Shown here: positions 5,581-58,630 of the stretch, one piece after another
Position numbering within the stretch: the first letter of the stretch is position 1
Layout: each line of letters opens with the position of its first letter
From: Candidatus Peregrinibacteria bacterium
GTDB taxonomy: Bacteria; Patescibacteriota; Gracilibacteria; UM-FILTER-43-11
Direction of reading: 5' to 3'
Length of the DNA: 64,000 nucleotides
NCBI GenBank assembly: GCA_016699515.1
Contig: CP064978.1
Span: 892,359-956,358, forward strand
Notes under the pieces: model-generated
What the model saw: only the letters and a program-made list of their open reading frames with translations
Databases searched by the model: none
Told to the model about the DNA's origin: nothing
Position numbers and translations under genes: made by a program

Positions 5581-5630
5581 GGTGTAGGGTGTAGGGCATA
5601 GTGAGTAGGGCATAGTGAGTAGGGCATAGT
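5581..5630. repeat. Left arm of inverted low-complexity repeat (word GTAGGGCATAGTGA)
   Basis: GGTGTAGGGTGTAGGGCATAGTGAGTAGGGCATAGTGAGTAGGGCATAGT, an imperfect reverse complement of 6027..6075. Confidence 0.8.
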
Positions 5631-5641
5631 TTTGGTTATGC

Positions 5642-6005
5642 CTAATATATTTTTTTGAGCATTGCATTTAGCATTCTCATGATTTCATCAAGTAGTTGCT
5701 CCGATTTAACAAAAAACCTTTCGTCAGACATACTTATTTTTGGCAATGATTATTTGAGTTTCCAGCTCTCCTCCGGATGCAAATGATACTTGCAAAAACT
5801 GCCTATACTGCCTAGTTGTCAGTCTTCTGTAACCTTCAGCTATATTTGACGGAATGGAAACTGAACATCGGCGCATCTGAGACACTAGGCCATACATTTC
5901 TGATTTCGGAAAATTCGCTGTTAACATGTAAATCTCCGAGACTAGTTCGATCGATTTTTGCCAAACAATCAGGCTCTTGTAACTTGAAAATTCACTCATA
6001 TACAA
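5642..6005 (-). CDS. Four-helix-bundle protein (23S rRNA intervening-sequence protein / Avd-like family), one frame break
   Basis: YKSLIVWQKSIELV..., RRCSVSIPSNIAEGY, GELETQIIIAK. The C-terminal SDERFFVKSEQLLDEIMRMLNAMLKKIY is in a second frame, with the break near 5727. Confidence 0.7.
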
Positions 6006-6026
6006 AAAAATAAATTATAAACAAAA

Positions 6027-6075
6027 CTATGCTCTACGAACCACACCCTATGCCCTACTCACTACACCCTACCCC
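6027..6075. repeat. Right arm of the inverted repeat pairing with 5581..5630
   Basis: CTATGCTCTACGAACCACACCCTATGCCCTACTCACTACACCCTACCC. It overlaps the last codons and stop of radA. Confidence 0.8.
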
Positions 6076-7403
6076 CTTATTAATTGCTTCTGCCACCGAC
6101 GATACTTGAGTGACCGATAATTTTGAATTCACCTTCATTGTAGGCATAAGGATTTTTTGAAAACCGAGCTGCTCGCATTCCTTGAGCCGTCTTTCGATCT
6201 GCATTACCGAGCGCACCTCGCCCGAAAGGCCAATTTCCCCCATCACCGCCAGATCGGATGGGAGGGGTTTTTTGAGTTTTGAGCTGGCGATTGCCAAGGC
6301 GACGGCTAGATCGACGGCGGGCTCGGAAAGCTTGAGGCCCCCCACTACATTTACGAACACGTCGGAACTGTCGAGTTTGATTTGGGCATAGCGCTCCAAC
6401 ACGGCCATAATAATATTGAGGCGATTGAGCTCAATTCCGCTGGCGGTACGCTTGGGGTAACCAAAGTGAGTGGCCGAGGTTAGTGCCTGCACTTCGACCA
6501 AAAACGTGCGCGTTCCTTCGAGTACCGGTACCACCACCGAGCCAATTGGGTTCTTAGGGCGTCCTTCCAAAAAGATGGCGGATGGGTTTTTCACACTGAT
6601 CATGCCCTCTTCTTTCATGTCAAATACTCCCACTTCGTCGACCGCACCGAAACGATTTTTGGTGGTGCGGAGCAAGCGGTAATGATGATGGGAATCCCCT
6701 TCTAAAAACAAAACCGTATCGACCAGATGGGTTAGCACTTGGGGGCCGGCCAAATTGCCGTCTTTGTTCACATGGCCAATCAGCAAAACGGGAATCCCTT
6801 GAGATTTGGCTAGCTGCATCAACTGTTCCGCCACGTAACGAACCTGAGAAATAGAACCCGCCTGACTTTCGATATTTTCGCTTTGCATCACCTGGACGGA
6901 ATCGACCACCACAAAGCCGGGTTTTTCGGATTGGATGGTGGCCAAGATCGATTCTAAATGATACGCGTTCATCACATGAATGCCTGACTTTAGCCCTAAT
7001 CTTCGCCCGCGCGAGGCGATTTGTTCGACCGATTCTTCGCCCGAAAAATAAAGCACTTTTCGATCGAGTTTGGCCAGTTCGTTGGCCACCTGGAGCGTGA
7101 GCGTTGATTTTCCGATTCCGGGCAAACCGGCCAGCAAGGTGATCGAGTCGGCCACCAGGCCCCGCCCACCGCCCGGTCGAATTCGTCAATGCCGGTGTTC
7201 AAGCGCTTTTTAGTGATTTCGATCGACTGAATGGTGACTTCGGGCTTCAAAGCCATTGCCGAAATCAGCGGTTTATCATTTTTACCCACATTCACCACAT
7301 CTTCCACCAAGGTGTTCCACTGCTTGCACCCCATACATTGCCCCGACCATCGCGAGGATTCTTGGCTACAATTACTGCAAACGTAGATTGATTTTAGTTT
7401 CAT
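6055..7403 (-). CDS. radA: DNA repair protein RadA (one frame break)
   Basis: N-terminal zinc ribbon CSNCSQ..CMGCKQWNT, Walker A GLPGIGKST and a Lon-like C-terminal domain. The break is in the C4 run 7160..7163; one extra base restores ..AVGGGLVADSITLLAG. Confidence 0.9.
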
Positions 7404-7408
7404 CCTTC

Positions 7409-7442
7409 TTAGTTAAGAGTTAATAATTGAGAGTTAAGAGTT
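7409..7442. repeat. Left arm of inverted repeat (word TAAGAGTTAA)
   Basis: TTAGTTAAGAGTTAATAATTGAGAGTTAAGAGTT. It pairs with 7779..7816 and encodes the C-terminus (..LNSQLLTLN) and stop of the enclosed gene. Confidence 0.8.
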
Positions 7443-7777
7443 GTTTTTTTGATTGCGCCCAGGATGCGTAAAAGCTCTTCGCAGTCTTTGATCAGTACCG
7501 TCACTTTATCCAGGGGTGCCAACTCGGAATCCCTAATCAACCTAAGCCAATAATGGGTTTCTCGAGTTTCTTTGTAAGAAATACATAATTTTGCAATGAA
7601 ATCTTTTCGTGATTGTCCACCAGCAGCCTCCTCTACGTTGGCTCCGATGGATGTACCCGACCTTAAAATCTGTTTTGCAATTATGTATTCTCGTTGCTGA
7701 TGAGCAAGATATTTGTAAAAAGATATTATTTTAAGTGCAAAAAAATAACTTTTTTCTTGAATAATGCTACGTTTCAT
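7409..7777 (-). CDS. Four-helix-bundle protein (23S rRNA IVS protein / Avd-like family)
   Basis: 122 aa with SGTSIGANVEEA and ETHYWLRL motifs typical of this family. Confidence 0.8.
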   Translation of the reverse strand: MKRSIIQEKSYFFALKIISFYKYLAHQQREYIIAKQILRSGTSIGANVEEAAGGQSRKDFIAKLCISYKETRETHYWLRLIRDSELAPLDKVTVLIKDCEELLRILGAIKKTTLNSQLLTLN

Positions 7778-7778
7778 T

Positions 7779-7816
7779 TTAATTCTTAATTATTAACTCT
7801 TAATTCTTAACTAAAG
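7779..7816. repeat. Right arm of inverted repeat pairing with 7409..7442
   Basis: TTAATTCTTAATTATTAACTCTTAATTCTTAACTAAAG. Confidence 0.8.
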
Positions 7817-7910
7817 TAAGTATAGTAAACATTCGTTCACCCGTCAACATTTTTCCTCTAGAATCTAAAATCTAAAATCTATACTCTAGGTAGGTCATTA
7901 AGATTATATT

Positions 7911-11010: not shown

Positions 11011-11075
11011 AGTTGTAGGTAGCAGGTTGCAGGTTGTATGCTTTGATGAATCACTTTTAACATACAACTTTTAAC
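11011..11075. repeat. Low-complexity hairpin (word GGTTGTA)
   Basis: AGGTTGTATG (11031..11040) pairs with CATACAACTT (11061..11070). The left side carries tandem GTTGTAGG/GTTGCAGG words. Confidence 0.6.
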
Positions 11076-13816: not shown

Positions 13817-13860
13817 CTTAGTAGTTAAGAGTTAAGAGTTAATAATTAAGAGTTATTAAC
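13817..13860. repeat. Solo arm of the TAAGAGTTAA word repeat
   Basis: GTAGTTAAGAGTTAAGAGTTAATAATTAAGAGTTATTAAC directly upstream of the rplJ start. It has the same word and orientation as 7409..7442. Confidence 0.7.
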
Positions 13861-14128
13861 AGACTCAAAAAAATCTCGGGCGAGCGCAGCGAGACGTACT
13901 TATTCAAGATTCAAAATTATAACATTCAAGATTAATTTTGAAACGAATTGTATGTCTGCGGGGCTTCTACCCACCTAAGGCGGGATGCCTGCTTTCTGCG
14001 ACGTGACCATTTTACGGATTTAAATGTAGATGTCAAATCTATTTTGCTGTAAGTTGTAGAATGTTAGTAATGCATAGCTCTTTGCATCCTGACAACCGAT
14101 CCTTTATTAATATGTATTTTTAAGTCCA

Positions 14129-15076
14129 GTGAAACATTTTACCGTTGATGACAAAGGAGCAGACCGACGCTTGGATCAGTATTTATCCTCCGTTCGGCCC
14201 GACCTTACCCGTGCCTTCGTTCAAAAGATGATCAAAGGGGGTTCCGTGTTTGTGAATCAGAAAAAAATTACTAAAGCCTCCCATTCAGTACAAAAAGACG
14301 ATGAATTGGTGGTGCTCATCCCTTCGATTAAAGAAGTAGGCATTGTGGCCGAGGATATTCCACTGGACGTTGTTTATGAAGATCACGACATGCTGGTGAT
14401 TAATAAGCCTGCCGGAATGGTGGTGCACCCCACTGATCATGGGTCCCACGTTTCGGGCACATTGGTCAACGCGGTGATGCACTATTGTCATGATAGTTTG
14501 AGTGGCATTGGCGGGGATCGACGCCCCGGCATCGTTCATCGGCTCGATAAACAGACCTCGGGGCTCATTATGGTGGCCAAACACGATGGCGCCCATCGCG
14601 CCCTGGCGCATCAAATCGAATCCCGAAGTATTGTTAAAGAATATATTACCTTGCTTAAGGGGCGCCTTAAGCCGAAAGAAGGCAGCATAGAAGCTCCGCT
14701 GAAAGCTCAACCCAAGGGGGGGCGAACCGACGTGCAAATTTCCAATTCCATCACGGCAAAATACGCTCTCACTCATTATCATGTGCAGGAGTATTTAGGT
14801 GAATACAGCTTGGTTAACGTGCGCATTATTACCGGAAGAACCCATCAAATTCGCGTCCACTTTGCCGCTATTGGCCATCCGGTGGTGGGTGACGAAATGT
14901 ATGGCGACGCCACGACCAATCAAGCGATCGAATCGCTCAGTGGTTTACGGCGCCAATTTTTACATGCGGCTCAGCTGACTTTTCGACTGCCAAAAAACGA
15001 CGAGGAAATTACGCTTACCTCTGAGCTGCCTGATGATCTCAGTCAAACCATTGAAACGTTGAAGGTTGTAAGTTGA
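14129..15076 (+). CDS. rluD: RluA-family 23S rRNA pseudouridine synthase (RluD-like)
   Basis: S4-like N-terminus (RLDQYLS), catalytic HRLDKQTSGL, GRTHQIRVH. Confidence 0.85.
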   Translation: MKHFTVDDKGADRRLDQYLSSVRPDLTRAFVQKMIKGGSVFVNQKKITKASHSVQKDDELVVLIPSIKEVGIVAEDIPLDVVYEDHDMLVINKPAGMVVHPTDHGSHVSGTLVNAVMHYCHDSLSGIGGDRRPGIVHRLDKQTSGLIMVAKHDGAHRALAHQIESRSIVKEYITLLKGRLKPKEGSIEAPLKAQPKGGRTDVQISNSITAKYALTHYHVQEYLGEYSLVNVRIITGRTHQIRVHFAAIGHPVVGDEMYGDATTNQAIESLSGLRRQFLHAAQLTFRLPKNDEEITLTSELPDDLSQTIETLKVVS

Positions 15077-15126
15077 AGGTTGTAAGTATCGATTTTCCTA
15101 CAACATAAAACTTGCAACTTACAACA
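15058..15126. repeat. Low-complexity hairpin (word GGTTGTAAG) overlapping the rluD stop
   Basis: GTTGTAAGTTG (15065..15075) pairs perfectly with CAACTTACAAC (15115..15125). The left arm encodes the rluD C-terminus ..LKVVS and its stop. Confidence 0.7.
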
Positions 15127-15151
15127 AAAAAGAGCCCGTAGGCTCTTTTTA
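15126..15151. terminator. Bidirectional rho-independent terminator between rluD and rplU
   Basis: AAAAAAGAGCC-CGTA-GGCTCTTTTT: a stem flanked by an A-run and a T-run. Confidence 0.7.
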
Positions 15152-15467: not shown

Positions 15468-15505
15468 CTTTAGTTAGGAGTTAAGCGTTTATAATTAAGA
15501 GTTAG
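15468..15505. repeat. Solo arm of the TAAGAGTTAA word repeat between rplS and rplU
   Basis: CTTTAGTTAGGAGTTAAGCGTTTATAATTAAGAGTTAG. It contains the rplS stop codon (15495..15497) and its last codons. Confidence 0.65.
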
Positions 15506-16114: not shown

Positions 16115-16685
16115 TATTGGGCGGCTTTCAGCTCTTTTTGGAGTTTATTGATGGCAAAAATGGACTCGGGGTCTTTGATGAGATCTCGAATGAATTTATC
16201 TTTGCATTCCAAGCGATATAAAAAGTCTTTTTGATTCATGTTGGTAAAGCGCAGATCCTTGCCGGATTTGGAGTTTTCAGAAAGAAAACGCTGCAGTTTT
16301 GCTTGTCTAATTCGCCCACCACCAACAAGTCCACCGCCGACTCTTTGCCGGCGAACACTCCGTTTAGAATCAATAGATCCACCTCCCCCATTTTGGCGAT
16401 TTTTTTGATCAAATCCTGCTCACCGCTCATCGCCTTAAGCAGAATGTTTTTTAGCTCATCAAAAATAACGTATTCGGTATTTACGTAAAAATACTTTTTG
16501 CGGTTTCTCATTCGGCTTTTGAGCAGTCCGATCTTTTTAAGATTGTCCAACTCGCGGCGAATCGAATTGATTTGTTCGTCCAACTTGCGCGTGAGCTCAC
16601 GTATAAAAAATTCCTGATCGGGGTTGAGCAAAAACGTAGTGAGGAGCTTGATGCGCGTGTTGGAACTGAAGAGAGATTTGAGCAT
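16115..16685 (-). CDS. Winged-helix (ArsR-like) transcriptional regulator candidate (one frame break)
   Basis: RIKLLTTFLLNPDQEFFIRELTRKLDEQINSIRRELDNLKKIGLL. The C-terminal part continues in another frame after T4 16297..16300. Confidence 0.5.
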
Positions 16686-17131
16686 AAGTATGAAAACAAA
16701 AAATACCAACAATATTGTTTCATGTAGATTGGTTTTTTGTTTGTTGAGGGTTGTACGTTGAAGGTGAGTTTTGGAGCTTACCGTCTACTACTTAATGTGG
16801 AGCATTTGTGTGCACATATTTTATACATTTAAGTTCATTTCTGATCAACCTCTTTTAAAAAAAAAAGTACCCCCTTGTCCTGTTTTTTGTTTTATATAAG
16901 CCGTATATTTTAATTGACATATTGTTTTTTAATTTCATTTTAAGAACTTCTTTTTTTGTTCAAGTATCTTTTTTTTGTACAATCGGTTTTTGAGCCTTTT
17001 TTAAATGAATAAATATTTTATTCAAATATACGGTTTTTTGTTTTAAAAAGCCCGATTTTATGTGTTAAATTTATCGAGCTTGCTTTTTAAACCGGTGATG
17101 ATGTATAATTTTTTTTAAACCTTAATTTTCT

Positions 17132-22824: not shown

Positions 22825-24616
22825 TTATGAATCTATTTCTTCACTTTTGGCGATGGAATGGGCGATGGCCAGAATGGTTTCTTTAAGCTCCACGGGGCCC
22901 TTCACCACGTAATGGCTCGCTTCATCCCGCGGGACGGTGGCGTAGAATATTCCATTTTCCGTATTTTCGGAGGTGGTTTTTTGGCCTGAATCCAACCACA
23001 ATTCAATCAATGCCTGGTCGAGCTCTTCCACCTCTTTATCGGCGAATCCCACCAGCCATAAATGCCCTTCTGCCGCGCCGAAACTACGAAAATACCAATT
23101 TTTTGGGTAGTAAACATCGAATTGTTTGTGGGTATTTTGGTAGAGCCTCATGTTGTCGAGTGCCACTTGAATAGGCACTAGCTTTTCTTCCGTAAGCTCA
23201 CCGGCTGGTTCGACTGGTTCGGCTGGTTCGACTGGTTCGGCTGGTTCGACTGGCTTAACCGGTTCGACAGGTTCCGGCTCGGCATTTTGAACTTTGGCAA
23301 TTTGAATCGCCTCGCCGGACACCAAAGCCCACTTTGTCTTTTTCTGCTCGATAGAGCGCTTTTTGGTTAAATTGAAGCGATGTGTTATTCACGAGGGTAT
23401 ACTGATACCCCGCCCGGAATGTTTCGCCGTTTTGGGTGTAAATTACAAAAAGGATTTGGTCGGATTCTACCACCTCGTGGCGCACCACTTCGGCGTCGGT
23501 CGGAATAAGGTTTTGTTGATTAAAAAAAGCGATCACATTGCGAGCGGAAGTAATCGGCTCGGTGGAATCGCTCTCTTGTTTTTCGGCGATGAGCGCATCC
23601 AATTGCGCCTGTCGATCCGCCTGCTCGTCAACATCAATTGATGCTTCGGGCATCTTGGGCTCATCTAAACACACATAGCCGGTGGGGCACTTGTTTTGAT
23701 TGTAGGTGCGTGGCTTGTAATTGGTGCAGCCGGCGGGCACGGGAACAAAGGGGCAATTCAAACTTTCGTCGGTTGAATTGATGGGCACACATACCCCTTC
23801 GGAAGCTTGATCGCCGCCATTCAATTCACAGCGAAATCCTTCGGCACAAGCCAGTTGCTCTGCCCCTCCGCATTGATCTCCACTTTTTACGGATGTTTGA
23901 GCGATTTGAATGCTTTCAATCATGGCTAAAAAGTCTCGCTCCACGTTTTCGTCTCTTTTGAGCAATTGAATTTGGATTACTTTTTGGCGGGCGGTGTTTT
24001 CGATATAAAAACGAATTGAGTCGCTGGCTTGAAAACGCAACGCTGACTTGCCCGAAATGGTTACCGGCTGCCCTACGCTATTTTCGCGATCAGCCACCCA
24101 TGCATCGAGCCCCAAATCGGTGTCGATTGTATTGATCTGAACTAGGTCTTCTGCATTGTGGCGAAAGGTAATACTGCCGACCCCCTCACGCTGTTCCCAG
24201 TATGCCGGATATTCAAAGGTAAGGTCGTCGCTGGCACTTTGGTATTGCTTCTTTTGCCCCAAAGCACTTTCGTCCGCCAATTCGATTTGTAATACATTAA
24301 ACACCTGTGTTTTATTGTCGATTAACGTTTGCATTTCGCCTTTCACTTGCACTTTTTGATCCACAAAATTCGACAGCGAAATGCGACTGCTTTGCAGGGC
24401 GATTTCTCCGGTTGCGGTTATCAGTTGATGCGTTCCTCTCTTAAAGCGATTCGAGTCGATTGGTTTTAGCACCCCGATGTACATTTGTGATGCCTCACCG
24501 GTATCGGTCATTTCGCTGCCCGGCTGATTGATGCGATCGTCTAAATTGGGAGTTTTGGGTTGGCAAGCGCTCACCATCAACAAGGTTACTACCGCTAGTA
24601 AAAATTGTTTTTTCAT
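22825..24616 (-). CDS. Large lipoprotein with Cys-rich middle region and PVEPAE tandem repeat (one frame break)
   Basis: Lipobox LLMVSAC. ORFs 23255..24616 and 22825..23325 join (break somewhere in 23310..23365). Tandem repeat at 23203..23280. Confidence 0.6.
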
Positions 24617-39168: not shown

Positions 39169-39213
39169 TCTAAGGAGTGAAGGAGTAAGTTTACCAAATT
39201 ATATTAATGCTTT

Positions 39214-40716
39214 TTAAGCTGCGGTTTTGTTTACATCATCCGTGTCGTGATAAGGACGGGCTTCTTCTACTCGTTTTAGCACTTCTTCTGTGATGTTTCC
39301 GGCAGGATAACCACCCCCCATGCATGAAGCGGTGAATTTTTTAATCTTTGGATTTCCCTCGCGCGCGGCCGCAATCAAATCGTCGAGCGTTTGGTAGTAA
39401 AGTTTATCGGCACCGATGGCCTCGCAAACCTGATCGATGGTGCGGTTGTGGGCAACCAGCTCTTTGCGTGTGGGCATATCAATGCCATACACATCCGGAT
39501 TAATGATCGGAGGCGCTGCTGAAGCAAAATATACTTTCCTTGCCCCGGCATCGCGCGCGAGCTGAATGATTTTGCGCGAGGTGTTACCGCGCACAATGCT
39601 GTCATCCACCAACAAAACGTTTTTGTTTTTAAACTCGAGCGGAATTGGGTTGAGTTTGTATCGAATCGACTTTTTGCGCGCCTCTTGATCGGGCATAATG
39701 AACGTGCGCCCGATGTAGCGATTCTTAATAAATCCTTCGCGAAACTTTACTTTAAGCTCATGAGCAAGGGTGAGTGCAATGTGTCGAGAGGTGTCGGGGA
39801 TGGGGATGACGACATCGATTCCCAATTTGTTTTTATTCTCCGGTGGGTTTTGCTTGATTTGCTTGGCCAATTTTACTCCCAAGCGCATGCGCGTTTTATA
39901 CACACTCACCTGGTCGATCAAGCTATCGGGACGAGCCAAATAAACGTGCTCAAAGATGCAGGGTTGCAACTTTCCTTTGACACATTGTTTAGTGTGTAAT
40001 TGGTGATTTTCGTCGATAAATACCGCTTCACCCGGCTGCACATCGCGCACGATTTTGTAGCCCATGGTTTGAAACGCCACACTTTCGGAGGCAATCATGT
40101 ATTCCTTTTTTTTGCCGGCTTCCTCGCGCATGCCAATAATAAGAGGTCGAATGCCAAATGGATCACGAAATGCCAAAAGCCCATGCCCCGCAATCATCGC
40201 CACACATGCATATCCTCCTTCTACTCGTTTAAACAAACGGGTCATCGCCTTGAAGATGCGCGCTGCGCTCAATTTGGATTGCCGATGCGTTTCTTTCATC
40301 AGCTCAAACGCCAATACGTTCAATAAAACTTCTGAGTCGGAGGTGGTGTTTAAGTGGCGCAAATTTTCGGTAACCACTTCGTTTTTGAGCGACTCGTAAT
40401 TGGTTAAGTTTCCATTGTGCGCCAGGGCAATGCCATAGGGAGCGTTCACATAAAATGGTTGGGCTTCTTCGTCGCTCTGACAACCTGCGGTGGGGTAACG
40501 CACATGCCCGAGCCCCATGGTTCCCAGCAATCTAAGAACGTGGCGAGTGTGAAACACATCGCGCACCAGCCCATTGGCTTTGCGTAAATGAATATGGCGA
40601 CCGTCATAAGTGGCCATTCCGGCAGCATCCTGCCCACGGTGCTGCAGTGTGATGAGCCCGTCGTAAAGTTCCTGAACGACATTTTGATTTCCCATGATTC
40701 CAACGACGCCGCACAT
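39214..40716 (-). CDS. purF: Amidophosphoribosyltransferase
   Basis: MCGVVGI N-terminal nucleophile and the PRTase motif VLLVDDSIVRGNT. The start is set at the Met before Cys, because the longer ORF-track N-terminus is translated repeat sequence. Confidence 0.9.
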   Translation of the reverse strand: MCGVVGIMGNQNVVQELYDGLITLQHRGQDAAGMATYDGRHIHLRKANGLVRDVFHTRHVLRLLGTMGLGHVRYPTAGCQSDEEAQPFYVNAPYGIALAHNGNLTNYESLKNEVVTENLRHLNTTSDSEVLLNVLAFELMKETHRQSKLSAARIFKAMTRLFKRVEGGYACVAMIAGHGLLAFRDPFGIRPLIIGMREEAGKKKEYMIASESVAFQTMGYKIVRDVQPGEAVFIDENHQLHTKQCVKGKLQPCIFEHVYLARPDSLIDQVSVYKTRMRLGVKLAKQIKQNPPENKNKLGIDVVIPIPDTSRHIALTLAHELKVKFREGFIKNRYIGRTFIMPDQEARKKSIRYKLNPIPLEFKNKNVLLVDDSIVRGNTSRKIIQLARDAGARKVYFASAAPPIINPDVYGIDMPTRKELVAHNRTIDQVCEAIGADKLYYQTLDDLIAAAREGNPKIKKFTASCMGGGYPAGNITEEVLKRVEEARPYHDTDDVNKTAA

Positions 40717-40728
40717 ATTTTTTGGATT

Positions 40729-40775
40729 AAAAATTACGAATTCACAATGACGAATTACGAATTTTTTCGTAATCG
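40729..40775. repeat. Low-complexity region (word ATTACGAAT) with a small hairpin
   Basis: AAAAATTACGAATTCACAATGACGAATTACGAATTTTTTCGTAATCG between the folD stop and the purF start. Confidence 0.65.
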
Positions 40776-40792
40776 AACTATTATTAAGCTTT

Positions 40793-41650
40793 CTAACTAT
40801 TTTGACGCATTCGTTTCGCTGCATGCACCGTGTTCACCATTAAGGCTGCCACCGTCATTGGACCCACTCCGCCGGGAACCGGCGAAATGTAGCTGGCTTT
40901 TTTACTGACATTTTCAAAATCCACGTCTCCGCAAAGCGATCCATCTTCTCTTCGATTGATTCCAACGTCGACCACCACGACGCCGTCTTTCACCATATCC
41001 GCTGTGATAAGATTTGGCTTTCCTACGGCTACAATCAAAATATCAGCGCGACGGGTGTGACTGGCTAAGTCGCTCGTATAAATGTGACATGTGGTTACGG
41101 TGGCATTGCGATTCAGCAACATGGTGCTGATGGGTTTTCCCACGTGGTTGCTATGCCCCACCACAACGACCTCTCGCCCCTGAATTTGAATGTCGTAATG
41201 GTCCAATAATTTAACAATGCCCAATGGGGTGGCGGGTGGCAAATCTTCAAAGTCCGGGCTTAAAAACATTTTACCCAAATTGTAGGCATGAAAGCCGTCG
41301 ACGTCTTTTTTGGGATCGATCGCCCGAATGATTAAGGGGACTTCAATGTGGGACGGCAGCGGCAATTGAACAATAAAGCCCGTTACCGAATCGTCTTGAT
41401 TGAGTTGTTCCACTTGGGCCAAGAGCTCATTTTGTGTGGTGGAATCGTTTAAATGAATTTTTACAAAATTCACCCCGGCTCTTTCACAGGCGACTTGTTT
41501 ATTACGCACATAAGACGCGGACGCCGGATTATCGCCCACCTGAATCACCACTAATTTTGGTTTTAGGGCCTCGATCTCACTTTTAAGCGAATCGATCAAC
41601 TCAGCAGAGAGTGCTTTGCCGTCTAAAGGGTCATGGTGATAATAAATCAT
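40793..41650 (-). CDS. folD: Bifunctional methylenetetrahydrofolate dehydrogenase/cyclohydrolase
   Basis: VGDNPASASYVRNK and VVVVGHSNHVGKP motifs, 285 aa. Confidence 0.9.
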   Translation of the reverse strand: MIYYHHDPLDGKALSAELIDSLKSEIEALKPKLVVIQVGDNPASASYVRNKQVACERAGVNFVKIHLNDSTTQNELLAQVEQLNQDDSVTGFIVQLPLPSHIEVPLIIRAIDPKKDVDGFHAYNLGKMFLSPDFEDLPPATPLGIVKLLDHYDIQIQGREVVVVGHSNHVGKPISTMLLNRNATVTTCHIYTSDLASHTRRADILIVAVGKPNLITADMVKDGVVVVDVGINRREDGSLCGDVDFENVSKKASYISPVPGGVGPMTVAALMVNTVHAAKRMRQNS

Positions 41651-47339: not shown

Positions 47340-47390
47340 TATTTTTGGTTATCTTTGCTTAGTATACTTATATCCTGGGGATTTTCACAA

Positions 47391-47533
47391 GGTCACTGCC
47401 GAGTCACTGGATCACTAGGTCACTCGCTTCGCTTGATCACTAGATCACAAAATTATTAATTATTTTTTGCCCCAGTGATCAAGTCCCGATGATCATCGGG
47501 ACGAGTGATCCAGTGAAGAAGTGATCCAGTGAC
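47391..47533. repeat. 143-nt low-complexity palindrome (word GTGATCCAGTGA / TCACTGGATCAC)
   Basis: The left arm carries tandem GTCACTG/GATCACT words and the right arm their complements. The inner perfect palindrome is CCCGATGATCATCGGG. It abuts the nadB stop. Confidence 0.75.
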
Positions 47534-48725
47534 TTAGATGACATAATGCCCCCCCACGCTTTGGCGTCGCTTTGCGCAGGCGTCTAAAATGGCTTTAGCT
47601 ACCAGTTTTCGGTGATGAATGCGGATATCACGCGAGGGGATCGAGTCGATTTCGACCCGTGCCTGCGCATATCCGTCCGCACTACGAATAATTCCAGCAT
47701 GCTCCCACATGATTTTTCCCAGGCGCTTGGCATAGGCTTTTACCTCGGGGAGAGGTTCGATGATGAGGGTGGGTGGGTTTTCGAATGATGTTTTTTGAAG
47801 GCGCGACCCTTCGACGAGCTCAGGATCATTCGCGCCTTCTTTCGACTCAATACTATTTGCCAAGCGCTCGGCAAATACCATTCCTTCTAAAAGGGCGTTT
47901 GACGCCAGTCGGTTGGCTCCATGCACGCCGGTGCAGGCAACTTCTCCCACGGCATACAAACCCGGCAGCTGGGTTTTTGCATTCAAATCGACCGGAATCC
48001 CGCCGCTGGCAAAGTGGGCCACCGGGGTAATGGGTACGCGGTCTACTGTTAAGTCGATGCCATAGTCTTTCAGGCGTTTATAAATGTTGGGAAACTTTTT
48101 TGATTTCAGCCGCGTTCAAATGATTCATTTGCAAATAAACTCCCCCTTCATTTGCTCAAAATAAATCGCTCGAGTGACGATGTCTCGCGGCGCCAATTCA
48201 GCGTCCACATGAACCTTTTAAAAACTCAACTCCGGCCTCATTTACAATTTTAGCGCCGAAGCCACGCAGCGTTTCGGACAACAAAAAATAACGCCCTGCG
48301 TCTAAATGATCCACCGCGGTGGGAGTAACCTGTTTAATCAAATGATTGAGAATGTCTTGCCCGGTAAAATCACTGGTGTGCCATACGCGCGCATGGCTGT
48401 GTGCCGCTTCGAGCGCGGGTTCCTGCTGAAAGGGAACCCCGATCGATTTTAAAAATCGAATCGAGCGCGGAGCATGCTCCACTAAAACCCGCACCGCCTT
48501 TTCGTCATTCAAATAACTGCCGGCCTTGAGCGTATCTTGAATGTGCGACTCGAAGGAATCTTCCGGCAACATGACCGCAGCCACTCCGCCCTGAGCCCAA
48601 TAAGTATTGGCTTCACGCAATTTTCCTTTGGTTACCACCGTTACCGAGCCTTTATCCTTTAAAAAATAAGCGGCCGAGAGTCCGGCGATACCGGAACCAA
48701 TGATGAGAAAATCGGTTTGATTCAT
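47534..48725 (-). pseudogene. nadB: L-aspartate oxidase, degraded (internal deletion plus at least three frame breaks)
   Basis: FAD N-terminus DFLIIGSGIAGLSAA and C-terminal HGANRLASNALLE are present. About 100 aa between the H..D.TG and LLSE.LRG.GA regions are absent relative to E. coli NadB as I recall it. 48040..48190 needs several frame changes. Confidence 0.7.
47797..47843. repeat. 47-nt palindromic element, copy inside nadB
   Basis: GAAGGCGCGACCCTTCGACGAGCTCAGGATCATTCGCGCCTTCTTTC is the exact reverse complement of 49068..49114. It is translated as KEGANDPELVEGSRL. Confidence 0.85.
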
Positions 48726-48790: not shown

Positions 48791-49801
48791 TTATAGCGAT
48801 CCGGTGTTTTTGATACAAAAATAAGCCGCCCCCGCAATCATAGCAGCGTTGTCGGTGCAGTAGATTAGTTTTTGCGGCATGCAAAGCGGCAGGCGGTCGT
48901 TTAATTTTTCGGTGACCGCTTGGCGGAGCGACTGGTTGGCCGACACTCCCCCGGCCAAATGAACCTCTTTTACATCGAAGGCTTCGGCGGCGGCCACGAG
49001 TTTATCGGAAAGGACATCGATTACGGCTGCCTGAAAGCTGGCGGCAAGGTTGTTGATATCCGTTTCTGAAAGAAGGCGCGAATGATCCTGAGCTCGTCGA
49101 AGGGTCGCGCCTTCTTTGGTTAAATTCTCTACCTGGCGCAATACCGCGCTTTTAAGGCCGGAAAACGAAAAATTATAACGATTGTTTTTGTCTAAATGCA
49201 CGCGCGGAAAATTGAAGGCGGCAGGATTACCGGCGGCGGCACGTTTGCTGATGATGGGCCCGCCGGGGTATCCCAGCCCCAACATACGCGCAACTTTATC
49301 AAACGCTTCACCGGCGGCATCATCCAAAGTTTCGCCGATCGATTCAAATTCGTGATGTCCTTTTAACCGTACCAATTCGTTGTGTCCTCCGGAAACCGTG
49401 AGCACCAAAATAGGAAATTGAATTGGCTCGCTGCGCTCCAAAAAATTGGCATAAATATGCCCGGCAATATGGTGCGTGGGAATCAACGGCTTTTGATACA
49501 AATAACTGAGCGCCTGTGCGGTATTCACCCCCACCAAAAGCGAGGCGATCAGGCCCGGCGCGTGCGTAACGGCGATCGCGTCGATGTCACCCCATCCCAC
49601 TCCGGCTTTTTCCAAGGCTTCGTCGATCACCGGATTGATTTGTTTAAGATGCTCACGCGCTGCCACCTCGGGAACTACTCCCCCGGTTTTGGTGTGCAAA
49701 TCCATCGAACTGGCGATCACATTGCTGTGCACCTTGATTCCGTCTTCCACCACGGCGGCTGCCGTTTCGTCACAACTGGTTTCGATTCCGAGTATTTTCA
49801 T
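48791..49801 (-). CDS. tsaD: tRNA N6-adenosine threonylcarbamoyltransferase TsaD
   Basis: ILGIETSCDETAAAV, HIAGH, GGHNEL, GGVSAN. Confidence 0.9.
   Translation of the reverse strand: MKILGIETSCDETAAAVVEDGIKVHSNVIASSMDLHTKTGGVVPEVAAREHLKQINPVIDEALEKAGVGWGDIDAIAVTHAPGLIASLLVGVNTAQALSYLYQKPLIPTHHIAGHIYANFLERSEPIQFPILVLTVSGGHNELVRLKGHHEFESIGETLDDAAGEAFDKVARMLGLGYPGGPIISKRAAAGNPAAFNFPRVHLDKNNRYNFSFSGLKSAVLRQVENLTKEGATLRRAQDHSRLLSETDINNLAASFQAAVIDVLSDKLVAAAEAFDVKEVHLAGGVSANQSLRQAVTEKLNDRLPLCMPQKLIYCTDNAAMIAGAAYFCIKNTGSL
49068..49114. repeat. 47-nt palindromic element, copy inside tsaD
   Basis: GAAAGAAGGCGCGAATGATCCTGAGCTCGTCGAAGGGTCGCGCCTTC is translated on the minus strand as KEGATLRRAQDHSRL within TsaD. 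Confidence 0.85.
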
Positions 49802-49850
49802 AGCTTGAGCTTGGGTCTTATCTTTTTATTCAAGTGACATAATAATACCT

Positions 49851-49971
49851 AATTACGAATACACAAATTACAAACAAATTCAAATACTTAAATACCAAAT
49901 AATTTAAAACTTAAAATTTGAAATTGGTTATTTGGTATTGCTTGTGATTTGTGTATTGGGTATTCGTAATT
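49851..49971. repeat. 121-nt imperfect AT-rich hairpin (word ATTACGAAT), no ORF
   Basis: AATTACGAATACACAAATTACAAACAA...AAATACCAAATAA pairs with TTATTTGGTATT..GTGATTTGTGTATTGGGTATTCGTAATT, in the divergent tsaD-lgt intergenic region. Confidence 0.75.
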
Positions 49972-49977
49972 TAATAT

Positions 49978-50761
49978 ATGAATATGATCAACCCAATCGC
50001 ATTCCAACTTGGCCCCATTTCGGTTCATTGGTATGGCATTCTTTATGGCGTGGGGTTATTTGTGGGCCTGTGGATGCTGACGCAGTTGAACCAAAAACGA
50101 CCGGTTTTTAAAAACAATGATTCATGGTTTGATTTGCTATTTTGGGTATTTTTGCTGGGGGTGATTTTAGGAGGTCGATTGGGCTACGTGCTGTTTTACA
50201 ATCTGCCGTTCTATCTGGAGCCTCTCGCTAAAATTTTTGCCGTGTGGCAAGGCGGCATGTCTTTTCATGGCAGGCTTTTGGGCACTGCACTGGTGACCTA
50301 TTTATATGCCAAAAAGCGCCGCGTCCGTTTTGTGGATGTCGCCGATTTACTCGTTATTCCCAGGGGCGCTGGCCCAAAGCCTGGGCCGATTGGGGAATTT
50401 TATTAATGGTGAATTGATGGGGCGAGTGATTCAAAACGAATCGTGGCAATGGCTGGGGGTCGATTTTGGCGATGGTCTTCTGCGCTACCCTTCCCCCCTT
50501 TTTCAGTCGATCGCTTTATTGGTGAATTTTTTGATCCTGCTCTTTATTTTCAACCAAAAACCCAAACCAGGAACGCTGCTGGCCAGCTACCTGATGATGA
50601 ACGGGGGCTTTCGGCTAGTCACCGAACTCTTCCGCGAACCCGACACCCAGATTGGCTTTCTAATCGGCCATTTAACCTTGGGTCAGATCCTGAGCGTGGG
50701 AGTAATGGGGGTGGGGGTTTGCACGCTCGGCTTTTCTCTAAAATTCAATAAGAGTACTTGA
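49978..50761 (+). CDS. lgt: Prolipoprotein diacylglyceryl transferase (one frame break)
   Basis: VHWYGILY, GGRLGYV and GRLGNFINGEL motifs. The fragments join near 50355. Confidence 0.8.
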
Positions 50762-55001: not shown

Positions 55002-55078
55002 TAATTACGAATGACGAATTACGAATGACGAATGACGAATTATGAATTACGAATTATGAATTACGAATGACGAATTAA
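55002..55078. repeat. Tandem degenerate heptamers GAATTAC/GAATGAC (word ATTACGAAT), single arm
   Basis: TTAATTACGAATGACGAATTACGAATGACGAATGACGAATTATGAATTACGAATTATGAATTACGAATGACGAATTAATA. It contains the stop codon of the cNMP-binding gene. Confidence 0.75.
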
Positions 55079-55467: not shown

Positions 55468-55476
55468 TTTATTTTT

Positions 55477-55559
55477 AGGAGTAAGGATTAAGTGGTAAGG
55501 AATAAGCTCGGGAGGTTGGGATGAGTTTTTTTCATCCTTCCCAATCCCTTATTCCTAAG
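55477..55559. repeat. Low-complexity hairpin (word AGGAGTAAGGA)
   Basis: AGGAGTAAGGATTAAGTGGTAAGGAATAAG ... CTTATTCCTAAG with an inner GGATGA/TCATCC stem. The related word CTAAGGAGTGAAGGAGTAAGT occurs at 39170..39190. Confidence 0.6.
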
Positions 55560-55651
55560 AAGATTTTATCACCCTCCCCCCACTTACACCATTGCTTTTT
55601 TAAAAAAGATATGCTACGGTCGAAGCTCGTGGTCATTTTAATTTTCATCCC

Positions 55652-58546
55652 TTGAATAAAATAATTGTAAAAGGGGCTCGCGCCCATAATTTAAAGAACG
55701 TCGATGTAGAAATTCCACGCGATCAACTCGTGGTTTTAACCGGCCCTTCGGGCTCGGGCAAATCGTCGCTCGCGTTTGATACGATCTACGCCGAAGGTCA
55801 ACGCAGGTATGTGGAAAGTTTGAGCACCTACGCGCGCCAGTTTTTACAATTGATGGAAAAACCCGATGTGGATTCGATTGAAGGTCTTTCGCCCGCTATT
55901 TCGATCGACCAAAAAACCGCCAGCCGCAATCCACGTTCAACCGTAGGAACGGTGACTGAGATTTATGATTATTTACGCCTTTTGTTTGCCAAGGTTGGCA
56001 CGCCTCATTGCCCTGAATGCAATCGATTGATTCAACGTCAATCAGCAAGCCAAATGGTGGATATTATTGCCGACATGCCCGAAGGCAAACGCTTTATGCT
56101 TTTGTCCCCTATCATTAAAGATCGAAAAGGATCGCACGAAAAAGTGATCGAAAAAATCAGAAAAGATGGTTTTGTGCGCTTCCGTGTGAATGGAACTATT
56201 TATACCGTCAATGAAACAGTTGCCTTGGATCCCAAAAAAAAGCATAGCATCGAAATTGTGGTCGATCGCTTGGTGGTGCGCGATTTAAAGAAAAAATGGG
56301 TCACGCTTCAATCGGGCGAAACCGTTGAAGAAAAAAATGAAGATCGTTCGCGCTTGGCTGATTCCCTTGAAACTGCTTTGCGATACGGCGAAGGCATGAT
56401 TAAGGTGGTGGATGCCGATACGAATGAAGAAGAGCTTTTTTCGGAAAATTTTGCCTGCGACCACTGCAACATTTCCATCCCCGAAATTCAGCCTCGCTCG
56501 TTCAGCTTTAATTCGCCCCATGGGGCATGTGAGGATTGTCATGGCCTGGGAACCAAGCAAAAAATCAATCCCGATTTGGTGATGCCTAACCCCAAACTTA
56601 CCATTGCCGAGGGAGCAATTTTGCCTTGGTCGAATTCGTCCATGCGGCTGAATTGGTACAATGGACTTTTAAAAGAGGTGGGCAAAAAACACGGATTCAG
56701 TATCGATACGCCGATCGGCAAGCTGACCGATGAACAAGTGCGACTGATCCTTTATGGCACTGGCGAAGAAACCTATCGCACCCATTACAGCTCGCAACAC
56801 AACAGTCATGAATACACCACCACGTTTGAAGGCGTCATTCCCAATTTGGAGCGGCGCTATCACGAGTCCGAATCGGATTACGTGCGGCATAACATTGAAC
56901 GTTTTATGGAAGAACTGGCCTGCGAAAGCTGTGGTGGACAACGGCTTAAGCGCGAGGCGCTGAGCGTTCAAATCGATCAAAAGTCCATCATTGATGTGAC
57001 CGAGTTTTCCGTGGAGCAGGCGCAAGCATTTTTTGCCAAATTCAAACCTGAACATCCCGATTACTCTTTGAATGATTCCCAATACGCCATTTCGAAATTG
57101 ATCATTCAGGAAATTTCAAATCGCCTGGAGTTTTTGAACAATGTGGGGCTTTCTTATTTAACGCTCAGTCGGGCGGCTAATACCCTTTCGGGCGGAGAAG
57201 CACAACGCATTCGCTTGGCCACTCAAATTGGCTCATCCCTTCAGGGAGTGCTTTATGTTTTGGATGAGCCGTCGATCGGATTGCATCAGCGTGATAACGA
57301 TCGCCTGATTAAAACCATGGAGAATTTACGTGATTTGGGCAATACCGTTTTGGTGGTGGAACATGACGAGGATACGATCAATGCCGCCGATTATGTACTG
57401 GATATCGGTCCGGCTGCCGGAAAACATGGAGGCTATGTGGTGGCAGCGGGAACCGCTGAAGAGATCAAGCAAAATAAACAATCGATCACCGGTGATTATT
57501 TATCGGGACGGAAACAGATTGAAATTCCGGCCAAGCGCCGCAAGGGCAGCAACCATTTTTTAGAGATACTAGGTGCCGAGGAACACAACCTTCGCAAGGT
57601 GAATGTGAAGATTCCTTTGAACTGTTTTATTGGCGTGACCGGTGTATCGGGCTCGGGAAAATCGTCATTGATCAATCATATTTTGTGCCCGGTGCTCAAC
57701 ACCAAGCTCAACCGTGCCAAGCAACGCGCCGGAAAACATGAGGCGATTAAAGGCATTGAACACTTGGACAAAATCATTAACATTGATCAATCCCCCATTG
57801 GCCGTACTCCCCGCAGTAACCCTGCCACCTACACCGGAGTGTTTACGAATATTCGCGAACTGTTTGCCTCAACCAGCGAGGCGCAATTGCGTGGCTACAA
57901 AGAAGGGCGCTTTAGTTTTAATGTAAAAGGCGGCCGTTGTGAATCGTGCAAAGGAGACGGGATTGTGAAAATTGAAATGCACTTTCTACCGGATATTTAT
58001 GTGCCTTGCGAAATTTGTAAAGGCAGACGCTACAATGCCGAAGCGCTGGAAATTACCTGGAGGGGCAGCAACATTGCCGACGTTCTGGACATGACGGTGA
58101 ACGAAGCGCTGGAAGCCTTTGAAAGCATTCCACAAATCAAGAGCAAATTGGAAACCTTGCAAGATGTGGGATTGGGATACATTCACTTGGGTCAGAGCGC
58201 CACCACGCTTTCGGGTGGAGAGGCTCAGCGGGTCAAGCTGGCTACCGAGCTGGCTAAACGTGCTACCGGCCGCACCATTTATGTGTTGGATGAACCCACC
58301 ACCGGGCTTCATTTTGACGACGTTAAAAAACTGCTGAATGTACTTCAGGCCTTGGTAGATAAAGGAAATACGGTGCTGACCATCGAACACAATTTGGATG
58401 TGATCAAGTCGGTGGATTATGTGATCGATTTAGGGCCCGAAGGTGGCACCGGGGGCGGCAACATTGTATGCACCGGTACGCCCGAAGAAGTGGCCAAGCA
58501 CAAAGAAAGCCACACCGGACGCTATTTGGCGAAAATGCTTCTTTAA
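55652..58546 (+). CDS. uvrA: Excinuclease ABC subunit A
   Basis: 964 aa with two ABC ATPase modules (GPSGSGKSS, GVSGSGKSS), zinc-finger Cys clusters and LSGGEAQR signatures. Confidence 0.95.
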   Translation: MNKIIVKGARAHNLKNVDVEIPRDQLVVLTGPSGSGKSSLAFDTIYAEGQRRYVESLSTYARQFLQLMEKPDVDSIEGLSPAISIDQKTASRNPRSTVGTVTEIYDYLRLLFAKVGTPHCPECNRLIQRQSASQMVDIIADMPEGKRFMLLSPIIKDRKGSHEKVIEKIRKDGFVRFRVNGTIYTVNETVALDPKKKHSIEIVVDRLVVRDLKKKWVTLQSGETVEEKNEDRSRLADSLETALRYGEGMIKVVDADTNEEELFSENFACDHCNISIPEIQPRSFSFNSPHGACEDCHGLGTKQKINPDLVMPNPKLTIAEGAILPWSNSSMRLNWYNGLLKEVGKKHGFSIDTPIGKLTDEQVRLILYGTGEETYRTHYSSQHNSHEYTTTFEGVIPNLERRYHESESDYVRHNIERFMEELACESCGGQRLKREALSVQIDQKSIIDVTEFSVEQAQAFFAKFKPEHPDYSLNDSQYAISKLIIQEISNRLEFLNNVGLSYLTLSRAANTLSGGEAQRIRLATQIGSSLQGVLYVLDEPSIGLHQRDNDRLIKTMENLRDLGNTVLVVEHDEDTINAADYVLDIGPAAGKHGGYVVAAGTAEEIKQNKQSITGDYLSGRKQIEIPAKRRKGSNHFLEILGAEEHNLRKVNVKIPLNCFIGVTGVSGSGKSSLINHILCPVLNTKLNRAKQRAGKHEAIKGIEHLDKIINIDQSPIGRTPRSNPATYTGVFTNIRELFASTSEAQLRGYKEGRFSFNVKGGRCESCKGDGIVKIEMHFLPDIYVPCEICKGRRYNAEALEITWRGSNIADVLDMTVNEALEAFESIPQIKSKLETLQDVGLGYIHLGQSATTLSGGEAQRVKLATELAKRATGRTIYVLDEPTTGLHFDDVKKLLNVLQALVDKGNTVLTIEHNLDVIKSVDYVIDLGPEGGTGGGNIVCTGTPEEVAKHKESHTGRYLAKMLL

Positions 58547-58630
58547 ATTACTTATTATCAATTATTTATTACTTATTAACTGCTCGTTCAAATTCCCTGC
58601 CAGTTAATAAGTAATGGTTAATAAGTAATT
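58547..58630. repeat. Low-complexity hairpin (word TTAATAAGTAA) between convergent uvrA and the PP2C gene
   Basis: CTTATTAACTG (58572..58582) pairs perfectly with CAGTTAATAAG (58601..58611). The arms extend with tandem TTACTTATTA words, and the right arm contains the PP2C stop. Confidence 0.75.

Follow-up and report, generated by a model that had tools for sequence, protein, structure and literature searches.

Heptanucleotide repeats were reportedly described in cyanobacteria by Mazel in 1990 as short tandemly repeated repetitive (STRR) sequences, and to our knowledge no origin or function of such repeats has been agreed upon. In marine Beggiatoaceae, cyanobacteria and Bacteroidota, TAACTGA heptamers are located immediately before the start codons of genes, ribosomal-protein genes among them, where they provide stop codons in all frames and where a canonical ribosome-binding site is rare (MacGregor 2015; PMC4679880). 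Likewise, GGGAATC and GGGGATT repeats are present in Xanthomonas and Nostoc, with 70-75 convergent inverted pairs in Xanthomonas, and most of them are transcribed (Rehm 2015; PMC4692102). A further related architecture is found in the intervening sequence (IVS) of the Coxiella 23S rRNA, a selfish element in which an S23p open reading frame (ORF) resides in the loop of a 28-bp stem that is cut by RNase III (Warrier 2016; PMC4990558). Here, we analyzed a stretch of 64,000 nucleotides from a Candidatus Peregrinibacteria bacterium (contig CP064978.1), termed the window, which represents about 5% of a 1.3-Mb genome. It contains tandem arrays of degenerate 7-nt words at gene boundaries, some of which face each other as the arms of hairpins, and two of these hairpins enclose a gene for a four-helix-bundle protein of the S23p family.

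To quantify the arrays, units of 3-16 nt were scanned over the whole window at two thresholds (15/21 and 14/21 matches), with block shuffles as the control. The enrichment over the shuffles was confined to period 7 and its double, 14. At 15/21 matches we obtained 13 period-7 regions where 0.27 are expected, an approximately 50-fold excess, and at 14/21 matches 16 regions compared with 2.5 in the shuffles. Although the coding fraction of the window is 88%, all 16 arrays are located at gene boundaries: twelve are mostly non-coding, three lie on gene-terminal codons and one extends across a gene junction. In line with the scan, Tandem Repeats Finder returned a period of 7 or 14 at nearly all loci, the exception being the locus at 47391 with a period of about 8. 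A previous reading of the window, made from the letters alone and referred to here as the sequence-only reading, had proposed tandem arrays of short words of 7-14 nt. Tandem Repeats Finder and inspection of the sequence revealed an array at every coordinate that it listed, and the word families that it saw recurring at several loci are present as described. The unit, however, had to be revised to 7 nt (about 8 at 47391): the array word is a degenerate heptamer, and the words of 10-14 nt correspond to 1.5 or 2 units. At least eight unrelated words coexist within these 64 kb.

Taken together, the period scan and Tandem Repeats Finder reveal the head-to-tail 7-nt copies that define STRR-like repeats and long simple-sequence repeats (LSSR), and the placement shows the strong non-coding bias and the proximity to start and stop codons that mark heptanucleotide simple-sequence repeats. 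We are thus confident that the loci are heptanucleotide simple-sequence arrays of this known class, and they suggest that the window is a local sample of a genome-wide population. Rfam 15, applied at its gathering score, reported only three tRNAs in the window, with neither an array or hairpin family nor an rRNA. A heterocystous-cyanobacterial STRR setting was rejected, since the highly iterated palindrome HIP1 (GCGATCGC) is not enriched in the window (3 matches versus 1.2 expected) and since the RluD and UvrA homologues at 65-80% identity are named Candidatus Peregrinibacteria or Patescibacteria, that is, candidate phyla radiation (CPR) bacteria. The same homologue names led to the rejection of a Bacteroidota setting, which had been prompted by the lack of a visible Shine-Dalgarno sequence.

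An inverted-repeat search combined with RNA folding against shuffle controls (expressed as z) sorted the loci into three groups (Table 1). True hairpins with arms made of arrays were found at seven loci, five of them empty and two enclosing a gene, which amounts to about a third of the arrays. The empty hairpins gave z values from -4.3 to -7.8, and the unpaired arrays ranged from -2.2 to +1.9. Hence, the proposal that at least twelve loci share one palindromic architecture does not hold: folding yields about seven palindromes, and the remaining loci are unpaired direct arrays. The folding check named in the sequence-only reading thus supports the five empty hairpins and the two cassettes and fails for the other loci that were folded.

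The two gene-bearing cassettes, which that reading had recognized as palindromes around four-helix-bundle genes, are confirmed both by their arms and by the PF05635 and TIGR02436 matches of the enclosed genes. Gene 2, radA and gene 1 are all encoded on the minus strand, and the cassettes sit among tatD, radA and nadE. When the minus-strand RNA of cassette 1 was folded, 51 long-range pairs formed between the arms (duplex -75 kcal/mol; z -6.6). The left arm of this cassette contributes, with its first unit, the TAG at which tatD (4789-5580) terminates and also includes the stop codon (5642-5644) of the enclosed gene, which is frameshifted near position 5724 as judged by three-frame translation. 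Cassette 2 formed 31 long-range arm-arm pairs (z -5.0) and has a promoter-like site (7847-7819, minus strand) just outside its right arm. The proteins encoded by genes 1 and 2 are too divergent for a mutual tblastn match. The Avd equivalog NF033474, for which the cut-off is 80, gave 21 bits, and gene 1 matched PF22296 (bAvd) weakly (5.4e-5). As a separate observation, radA is split into overlapping ORFs at 6055-7155 and 6996-7403, which indicates that the reading frame shifts near 7155-7190 or that the sequence contains an error there.

We asked whether the association of these genes with heptamer arrays extends beyond the window. Family members were sampled purely by protein homology, and their flanks were inspected afterwards. 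The first set comprised 29 genes including the two of the window, drawn from genome contigs (2), IMG/VR contigs (16) and nine plasmid loci with ten genes; the second set consisted of seven plasmid genes of the gene-1 subfamily. Arrays of 7 nt were present on both flanks of 23 of the 36 four-helix-bundle genes, compared with 1 of 141 control genes in the loci of the first set, and this lone exception (L096, 551-925) is itself a second four-helix-bundle gene. By set, both flanks carried arrays in 20/29 and 3/7 genes and one flank in 5/29 and 2/7; two more genes of the second set are accompanied by period-8 arrays. Moreover, when the upstream flank was aligned with the reverse-complemented downstream flank, the inverted-complementarity score had a median of 20.5 in the first set versus 8.0 in controls (Mann-Whitney p = 8e-12). 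The carriers belong to Peregrinibacteria, Bacteroidota, Spirochaetota, Chloroflexota, Bacillota, Cyanobacteriota and Gemmatimonadota. Typically, the sampled genes are co-oriented passengers in unrelated operons, located at hsdS/hsdR, drmD/MmeI, DUF1156/Swt1-HEPN, cas6/cas4, cmr2/cmr3 and between the adaptor and the permease of a resistance-nodulation-division (RND) system.

The converse of this association fails. The idea that arrays mark four-helix-bundle genes was rejected, because among the 54 AATTACG arrays of IMG/VR a four-helix-bundle gene lies within 150 nt of only 2, and none was found in 830 kb of other loci. The genes thus live in array hairpins, whereas most arrays are empty. Independently of this question, we noted that defence operons harbor a four-helix-bundle gene in L105, L106, L110, L111, L181 and L184, with DUF1156/Swt1-HEPN occurring twice besides hsdS/hsdR, drmD/MmeI, cas6/cas4 and cmr2/cmr3, and that short-period tandem arrays frame each of these cases, with a period of 7, or of about 8 in L184. 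In addition, a four-helix-bundle cassette in L093 is followed by six tandem units of about 49 nt (668-952), in which CAAAACT / CAAAATT arrays are bracketed by GCAAC...TTGCGACG; this higher-order repeat is built of array hairpins.

Setting the ORF ends against the array coordinates revealed that many genes stop within or directly against an array. This applies to tatD (5578-5580), radA (6055-6057), four-helix-bundle gene 2 (7409-7411), rluD, whose TGA (15074-15076) lies within the left arm of the hairpin 15058-15125, and rplS (15495-15497), whose stop is covered by the array 15468-15500 that also abuts the rplU start (15464). It likewise applies to the C-terminal fragment of nadB (stop at 47534-47536, carried by the base of the hairpin 47391-47534), the gene for the cyclic-nucleotide (cNMP)-binding protein (55075-55077), uvrA (58544-58546) and the SpoIIE/PP2C gene (58629-58631). 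The array 55003-55077 spans the entire distance from the stop of the cNMP-binding gene to the DUF3307 start (54996). The sequence-only reading had placed terminal or stop codons of radA, rluD, rplS, the gene at 7409, the cNMP-binding gene and the PP2C gene inside arms, and the stops of these genes do lie in or against an array; it misnamed the gene at 39214-40824 nadB, which is purF, whereas the nadB remnant is located at 47534-48022. All three frames are closed by 10 of 23 arrays on each strand, compared with 4.5 and 3.6 in shuffles of the same sequences. Since most words contain TAA, TAG or TGA, three or more copies close all frames, and neighboring genes consequently end inside arrays. For annotation this means that gene ends beside arrays may reflect the repeat and not an ancestral stop codon.

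Most of the unpaired arrays are separated from a following start codon by only a few nucleotides, as seen for nadE, rpsT, rplJ, rplU, purD and the DUF3307 gene, and arrays are also found within a few nucleotides of the radA start. The downstream genes have no common function, and no Shine-Dalgarno-like sequence is visible upstream of those start codons that were inspected in the window.

Table 1. Coordinates of cassettes, array hairpins and unpaired arrays in the window (MFE, minimum free energy).
Feature	Position	Strand	Words and remarks
Cassette 1 left arm	5574..5652		heptamers TAGGGTG / GTAGGGC ATAGTGA
Four-helix-bundle (S23p / 23S_rRNA_IVP) gene 1	5642..6000	-	PF05635 2e-30; TIGR02436 5e-33 with frame-corrected protein
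Cassette 1 right arm	6004..6082		complement of left arm; holds last codons and TAG stop of radA (6055-6057)
Cassette 2 left arm	7405..7442		AGTTAAG / AGTTAAT units; contains gene 2 stop; 5 nt upstream of radA start (7403)
Four-helix-bundle gene 2, intact, 122 aa	7409..7777	-	PF05635 4.6e-24; TIGR02436 1.1e-28; PDB 2rld 1.5e-28
Cassette 2 right arm	7779..7820		TTAATTC / TTAACTC units; immediately upstream of gene 2 start codon
Unpaired direct array	7856..7888	+	AATCTAA; upstream of nadE (start 7911)
Unpaired direct array	11011..11040	-	GGTTGCA / GGTTGTA; just upstream of rpsT start (10998); small adjoining hairpin only
Unpaired direct array	13817..13855	-	AGTTAAG (TAACTCT in mRNA sense); ends 4 nt before rplJ start (13813)
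Unpaired direct array	13902..13933	-	ATTCAAG; second array in rplJ leader region
Empty hairpin	15058..15125 (folded 15052-15133)		GTTGAAG GTTGTAA arms; MFE -24.4, z -5.5; convergent rluD/rplU
Direct array, apparently unpaired (15468 not folded)	15468..15500	-	AGTTAGG AGTTAAG ...; fills rplS-rplU spacer
Weak short array	16745..16770	-	GTTGAGG GTTGTAC GTTGAAG; upstream of ORF 16236-16712; no significant fold
Short unpaired array	39170..39190	-	AAGGAGT GAAGGAG TAAG; abuts purD start (39168)
Unpaired array with 7-bp mini-hairpin	40729..40775	-	AATTACG / AATGACG; probable folD-purF spacer; z -1.0
Empty hairpin	47391..47534 (folded 47385-47540)		GTCACTGGATCACTAG... arms, period about 8; MFE -65 to -67, z -7.8
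Empty hairpin	49844..49971 (folded 49840-49975)		AATTACG / AATACAC-type words; z -6.4; divergent tsaD/lgt
Longest array, unpaired	55003..55077	-	10.7 copies AATTACG / AATGACG; z +1.9
Empty hairpin	55477..55560 (folded 55470-55570)		left arm AGGAGTA AGGATTA array; z -4.3; divergent cNMP-binding gene/uvrA
Empty hairpin	58546..58630 (folded 58540-58636)		ATTACTT / AAGTAAT array arms; z -5.8; convergent uvrA/SpoIIE-PP2C gene
Short unpaired array	61089..61120		CCCTAAC-type; between divergent ORFs 59425-61065 and 61118-61774

To follow the fate of the arrays in relatives, the window was compared with five syntenic Peregrinibacteria loci (L002, L003, L176, L177 and L178). All five carry period-7 arrays, their number ranging from 1 to 8 in loci of 13-23 kb. 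The individual counts are 4 (including a low-complexity one) in 21 kb, 3 in 13 kb, and 8, 4 and 1 in 23, 23 and 13 kb, respectively, while the window has 13 per 64 kb. As the background control, 80 unrelated RluD loci, obtained from a metagenome scan with an RluD alignment (universal motifs) and comprising relatives at 40-48% from other phyla, contained 23 arrays in 727 kb, clustered in few contigs. Among the metagenome contigs, we also observed heptamer-array hairpins directly 3' of rluD in two of high GC content (64-66%) from unrelated bacteria (L082, 10950-11035 and 17310-17616; L053, 7337-7458). In L082, arrays are further found on the flanks of a gene that was recognized by eye as a putative L28 (rpmB) gene, and the word of L053, GAATTAA, also borders gene 2 of the window.

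The sequence-only reading had suggested a comparison of orthologous spacers, and this comparison revealed the predicted presence/absence polymorphism. L002 and L003 lack the hairpin at rluD/rplU, where the two genes share 8 nt; between radA and nadE, L002 has no four-helix-bundle genes; and the spacer between DUF3307 and the cNMP-binding gene measures 6 nt in L176 versus 78 array-filled nt in the window. Similarly, the folD/purF spacer comprises 19 nt in L002 versus about 110 nt in the window. At other sites the position persists and the word is replaced. Hairpins occupy the uvrA/PP2C site in L176 and L178 with unrelated words, the tsaD/lgt spacer of L176 holds a hairpin of TCTAAAT, which is unrelated to the word of the window, and arrays of other words are found in L002 at the equivalent places upstream of rpsT and in the rplJ leader. 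Presence/absence polymorphism thus coexists with positional persistence and full word turnover. The occurrence of different words at the same sites would point to selection for the stem rather than for its sequence and argues against the repeated insertion of one element; for uvrA/PP2C and tsaD/lgt, local turnover fits better than insertion.

A single copy-number step of one unit was captured, in a related cassette of other contigs: over 800 nt, the independent contigs L091 and L092 differ solely by one 7-nt unit in the downstream arm of the cassette, and this change in one arm alone points to slippage. Moreover, the arms identified by the inverted-repeat search are only 72-92% complementary and differ in unit composition and copy number. 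Together, the imperfect complementarity, the unequal units and copies and the gain of one unit by one arm alone do not support the suggestion that the arms are templated.

Several words are shared between hosts. AATTACG occurs in the window, L003, L084, L086, L096 and L097; TAGGGTG / GGGTGTA is found at gene 1 of the window and in Nostoc punctiforme (L109); AATTAAG is common to the window and the 64%-GC contig L053; a CTTCTGCC-type word is present in Nostoc 7120, Stanieria and Gemmatirosa; and GGGGATT-type complements flank the Planktothrix gene (L110). TTTTGAA is present in L002 and L093 and is also documented for Nostoc 7120 (bioRxiv 10.1101/2022.06.06.494920). Word distance shows a weak correlation with protein identity (Spearman -0.28, permutation p 0.007). 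A strict code between protein subfamily and arm word was rejected, as proteins that are 77% identical (L097 versus L109) have different words. The code fails also in the gene-1 subfamily, where the seven additional genes carry GGGAAAA, AAAAGCT or CTTCTGCC and not TAGGGTG.

Considering these data, we lean, by a modest preference, towards an explanation in which slippage generates repeat stems that act on transcripts, with IVS-like gene cassettes among them. Arrays would be tolerated only between genes and at gene ends, where they may arise, grow, shrink and switch word by replication slippage in 7-nt steps. Where arrays of complementary words happen to face each other, they are predicted to fold into a long stem, and such pairs may be kept by selection for the usefulness of the stem on the transcript. 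The stems, probably substrates of RNase III-type enzymes, could thereby serve as double-stranded processing sites and as structures that protect 3'-ends, and would separate and insulate neighboring cistrons. The gene cassettes would represent the 23S rRNA IVS architecture moved into a protein-coding operon; the computed stem would allow a promoter-less passenger gene to be excised from the host transcript with its neighbors unharmed. The unpaired arrays upstream of start codons, in turn, may provide G-poor, unstructured leaders devoid of a Shine-Dalgarno-like sequence, as for the TAACTGA repeats. Taken by itself, an RNA-level function of arrays and stems is a tentative proposal to which we assign somewhat less than an even chance.

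Several observations weigh against this explanation. The same words, AATTACG, TAGGGTG, TTTTGAA, AATCTAA and CTTCTGCC, recur in unrelated phyla, which would not be expected from pure local slippage, and slippage alone does not account for 7 nt as the preferred unit. The hairpins between divergent genes (49840 and 55470) have no obvious role at a 3'-end. In Pseudanabaena (plasmid pPg_01; L181), the gene between cas6 and cas4 is flanked by direct and not by inverted arrays (AAAAGCT and AAAAGCC, equally oriented, with 14 and 10 copies, respectively), so that a stem around the gene is not universal. The signature motif of RNase III was not found in the window, which carries little weight given that the window is about 5% of the genome. 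Finally, cleavage, stabilization and leader function are all predictions made from sequence.

The sequence-only reading had considered a mobile family, and we accordingly weighed the possibility that the hairpins are non-autonomous mobile elements, similar to MITEs (miniature inverted-repeat transposable elements) or repetitive extragenic palindromic (REP) elements, with the enzyme encoded elsewhere and the cassettes as their gene-carrying form. The absence of the rluD/rplU hairpin and of both gene cassettes in relatives, the recurrence of words at several loci of the window, the flanking of homologous genes in other phyla by the same words (AATTACG in L084, L086, L096 and L097; TAGGGTG in the window and L109), the weak correlation of protein identity with arm word and the location of four-helix-bundle genes inside unrelated operons (such as cas6/cas4, cmr2/cmr3, hsdS/hsdR, drmD/MmeI and the RND adaptor/permease pair) are all consistent with mobility. 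However, no near-identical pair exists among the seven hairpins of the window, no target-site duplication was seen at their borders, and no transposase or gene related to the REP-associated tyrosine transposase (RAYT) was recognized among those ORFs of the window that were scanned. The arms, being internally repetitive and imperfectly matched, are unlike copies of a master element, and the 77%-identical proteins have different words. In addition, hairpins at conserved sites in relatives are built of unrelated words, and the sole sequence change caught is a 7-nt slippage step. We therefore give little credence to this alternative. For the empty hairpins the suggested mobility is not supported; it is plausible only for the gene-bearing cassettes, which are sited in unrelated operons in many phyla.

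The arrays could also serve as binding platforms for a sequence-specific nucleic-acid-binding protein in a regulatory network, with the hairpins being secondary; candidates are the pentameric four-helix-bundle protein itself or an RNA binder of the S1, Csp or CsrA type. The Avd proteins of diversity-generating retroelements (DGRs), which are relatives of the four-helix-bundle proteins, bind nucleic acids. The tight linkage of four-helix-bundle genes to arrays, the limited vocabulary of words that recurs across phyla and the location of arrays within a few nucleotides of the rpsT, rplJ, rplU, radA and purD starts fit such a role, and the last feature matches both the TAACTGA repeats (PMC4679880) and the TTTTGAA repeats of Nostoc (bioRxiv 10.1101/2022.06.06.494920). 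On the other hand, at least eight unrelated words in 64 kb are too many for one specific binder, orthologous sites in relatives and closely related four-helix-bundle proteins have different words, a four-helix-bundle gene lies near only 2 of the 54 AATTACG arrays, and the downstream genes lack a common function. A binding platform thus appears improbable.

That the hairpins are ordinary Rho-independent terminators and the direct arrays chance low-complexity sequence is very hard to sustain: although two hairpins lie between convergent genes (15058 and 58546), those at uvrA/PP2C are kept in relatives and intergenic DNA looks AT-rich by eye, the array stems are AT-rich and lack the T-run that follows the short GC-rich stem of an intrinsic terminator, a description that fits only the separate canonical small GC hairpin at 15127-15150 beside the hairpin 15058-15125; two hairpins are located between divergent genes and two around whole genes, the promoter and terminator consensus scans of the window gave no enrichment over chance, and period 7 alone exceeds the shuffles about 50-fold. 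The statement of the sequence-only reading that these are not ordinary terminators is therefore in agreement with our results.

Returning to slippage-driven stems that act on transcripts, a far-reaching extension would be that four-helix-bundle genes and heptamer hairpins constitute one widespread system. It would consist of IVS-like selfish cassettes outside rRNA, which invade operons including those of CRISPR-Cas, restriction-modification and DISARM systems in at least seven phyla and are excised at the RNA level, with a pentameric protein that binds the arrays or generates and maintains them. We regard this extension as unlikely; if true, it would assign a function to a highly abundant family without a known one and an origin to the heptamer repeats of cyanobacteria, Xanthomonas and others. 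Irrespective of it, the occurrence of heptamer repeats with many words in a streamlined 1.3-Mb CPR genome indicates that they are not peculiar to large, repeat-rich genomes. Likewise, the array framing, which is nearly constant in the homology sample and mostly takes the form of a hairpin, offers a lead on the "four helix bundle protein" family, which has thousands of homologues and no known role.

Further observations concern individual genes of the window. Upstream of rplJ, the window (13940-14036) and L002 (7960-8071) share conserved blocks, for example ATGCCTGCT.TCTGCGAC, and a strong promoter-like site is located at 14036-14009 on the minus strand. The region is probably an L10-leader-like structure with different arrays in the window and L002, and it was not called by Rfam. 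The proteins L19 (15495-16031, 178 aa) and L10 (13166-13813, 215 aa) exceed the usual bacterial forms in length, which also applies to the relatives (184-227 aa and 202-242 aa, respectively); the additional length of L19 is a C-terminal extension. The nadB gene is split into an N-terminal ORF (48198-48725, 175 aa) and a C-terminal ORF (47534-48022, 162 aa) and lacks the central part of the FAD-binding domain. At the syntenic position the nadB ORF of L176 extends over at least 485 aa, and nadB of the window is a probable pseudogene. A perfect inverted duplicate of 47 nt (47797-47843 and 49068-49114) lies inside the C-terminal nadB fragment and tsaD, 1.2 kb apart, and carries a 10-nt terminal inverted repeat of its own (GAAGGCGCGA...TCGCGCCTTC); a small palindromic in-gene insert, a gene-conversion tract and an assembly artefact are possible origins. 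The lgt gene (49978-50761) appears as two overlapping ORFs (49978-50406 and 50306-50761), whereas the relatives have one gene of about 255 aa. Finally, a 9/18-nt tandem repeat of CTGGTTCGA with about eight copies (23202-23279) is contained in overlapping minus-strand ORFs and represents a separate, in-frame kind of repeat.

How do these elements relate to the described systems? With the Avd proteins of DGRs the window genes share the four-helix-bundle fold family. However, they score far below the Avd cut-off, and neither a reverse transcriptase nor a template/variable repeat was identified beside them, their neighbors being tatD, radA and nadE. Like REP elements, bacterial interspersed mosaic elements (BIMEs) and MITEs, the hairpins are small intergenic palindromes that are often placed on stop codons, and those elements are thought to affect mRNA stability. 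In contrast to REP/BIME, which are defined by one conserved imperfect palindrome of about 35 nt together with a RAYT, the hairpins of the window lack a consensus, differ in word and length, have arms that are internally tandem-repetitive, and come with no RAYT identified within the 64 kb. As regards MITEs, neither near-identical copies nor a duplication at the borders was seen among the seven hairpins, in about 5% of the genome and with relatives so distant that insertion borders cannot be defined from them.

The closest correspondence is with the heptanucleotide repeats, which likewise have a 7-nt unit, degenerate head-to-tail copies, an intergenic location near starts and stops and stop codons in all frames. 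In the window and the related cassettes, the likeness extends to inverted pairs that can form stem-loops at some loci and to shared words, and one related cassette displays a single copy-number step of 7 nt. In contrast to the repeats described elsewhere, the window has many words and not one dominant word and belongs to a CPR host, and the link to four-helix-bundle genes is not made in those papers. Intergenic heptamer arrays and inverted pairs as such are already known; the CPR host, the multitude of words and the placement of four-helix-bundle genes in such hairpins outside rRNA appear to be new, in that our literature search, which was incomplete, found neither a link between S23p/four-helix-bundle genes and heptamer arrays nor a report from CPR bacteria.

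The cassettes, finally, resemble the 23S rRNA IVS of Coxiella and Leptospira (PMC4990558). They differ in that they reside between protein-coding genes (tatD, radA and nadE) of a window in which Rfam detects no rRNA, and not in helix 25 or 45, in that their arms are tandem heptamers where those of the IVS are unique sequence, and in that RNase III excision is predicted only. Nevertheless, a PF05635 / TIGR02436 gene lies in the loop in both cases, terminal inverted repeats form a long stem around the complete ORF (28 bp in Coxiella versus 51 and 31 pairs in the window), and the passenger has the same orientation as the transcription unit of the host. Signs of decay are also common to both: a frameshift affects gene 1, and the Coxiella ORF reportedly undergoes reductive evolution. 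Taken together, the homology sample from seven phyla extends the 23S rRNA IVS architecture to protein-coding operons.

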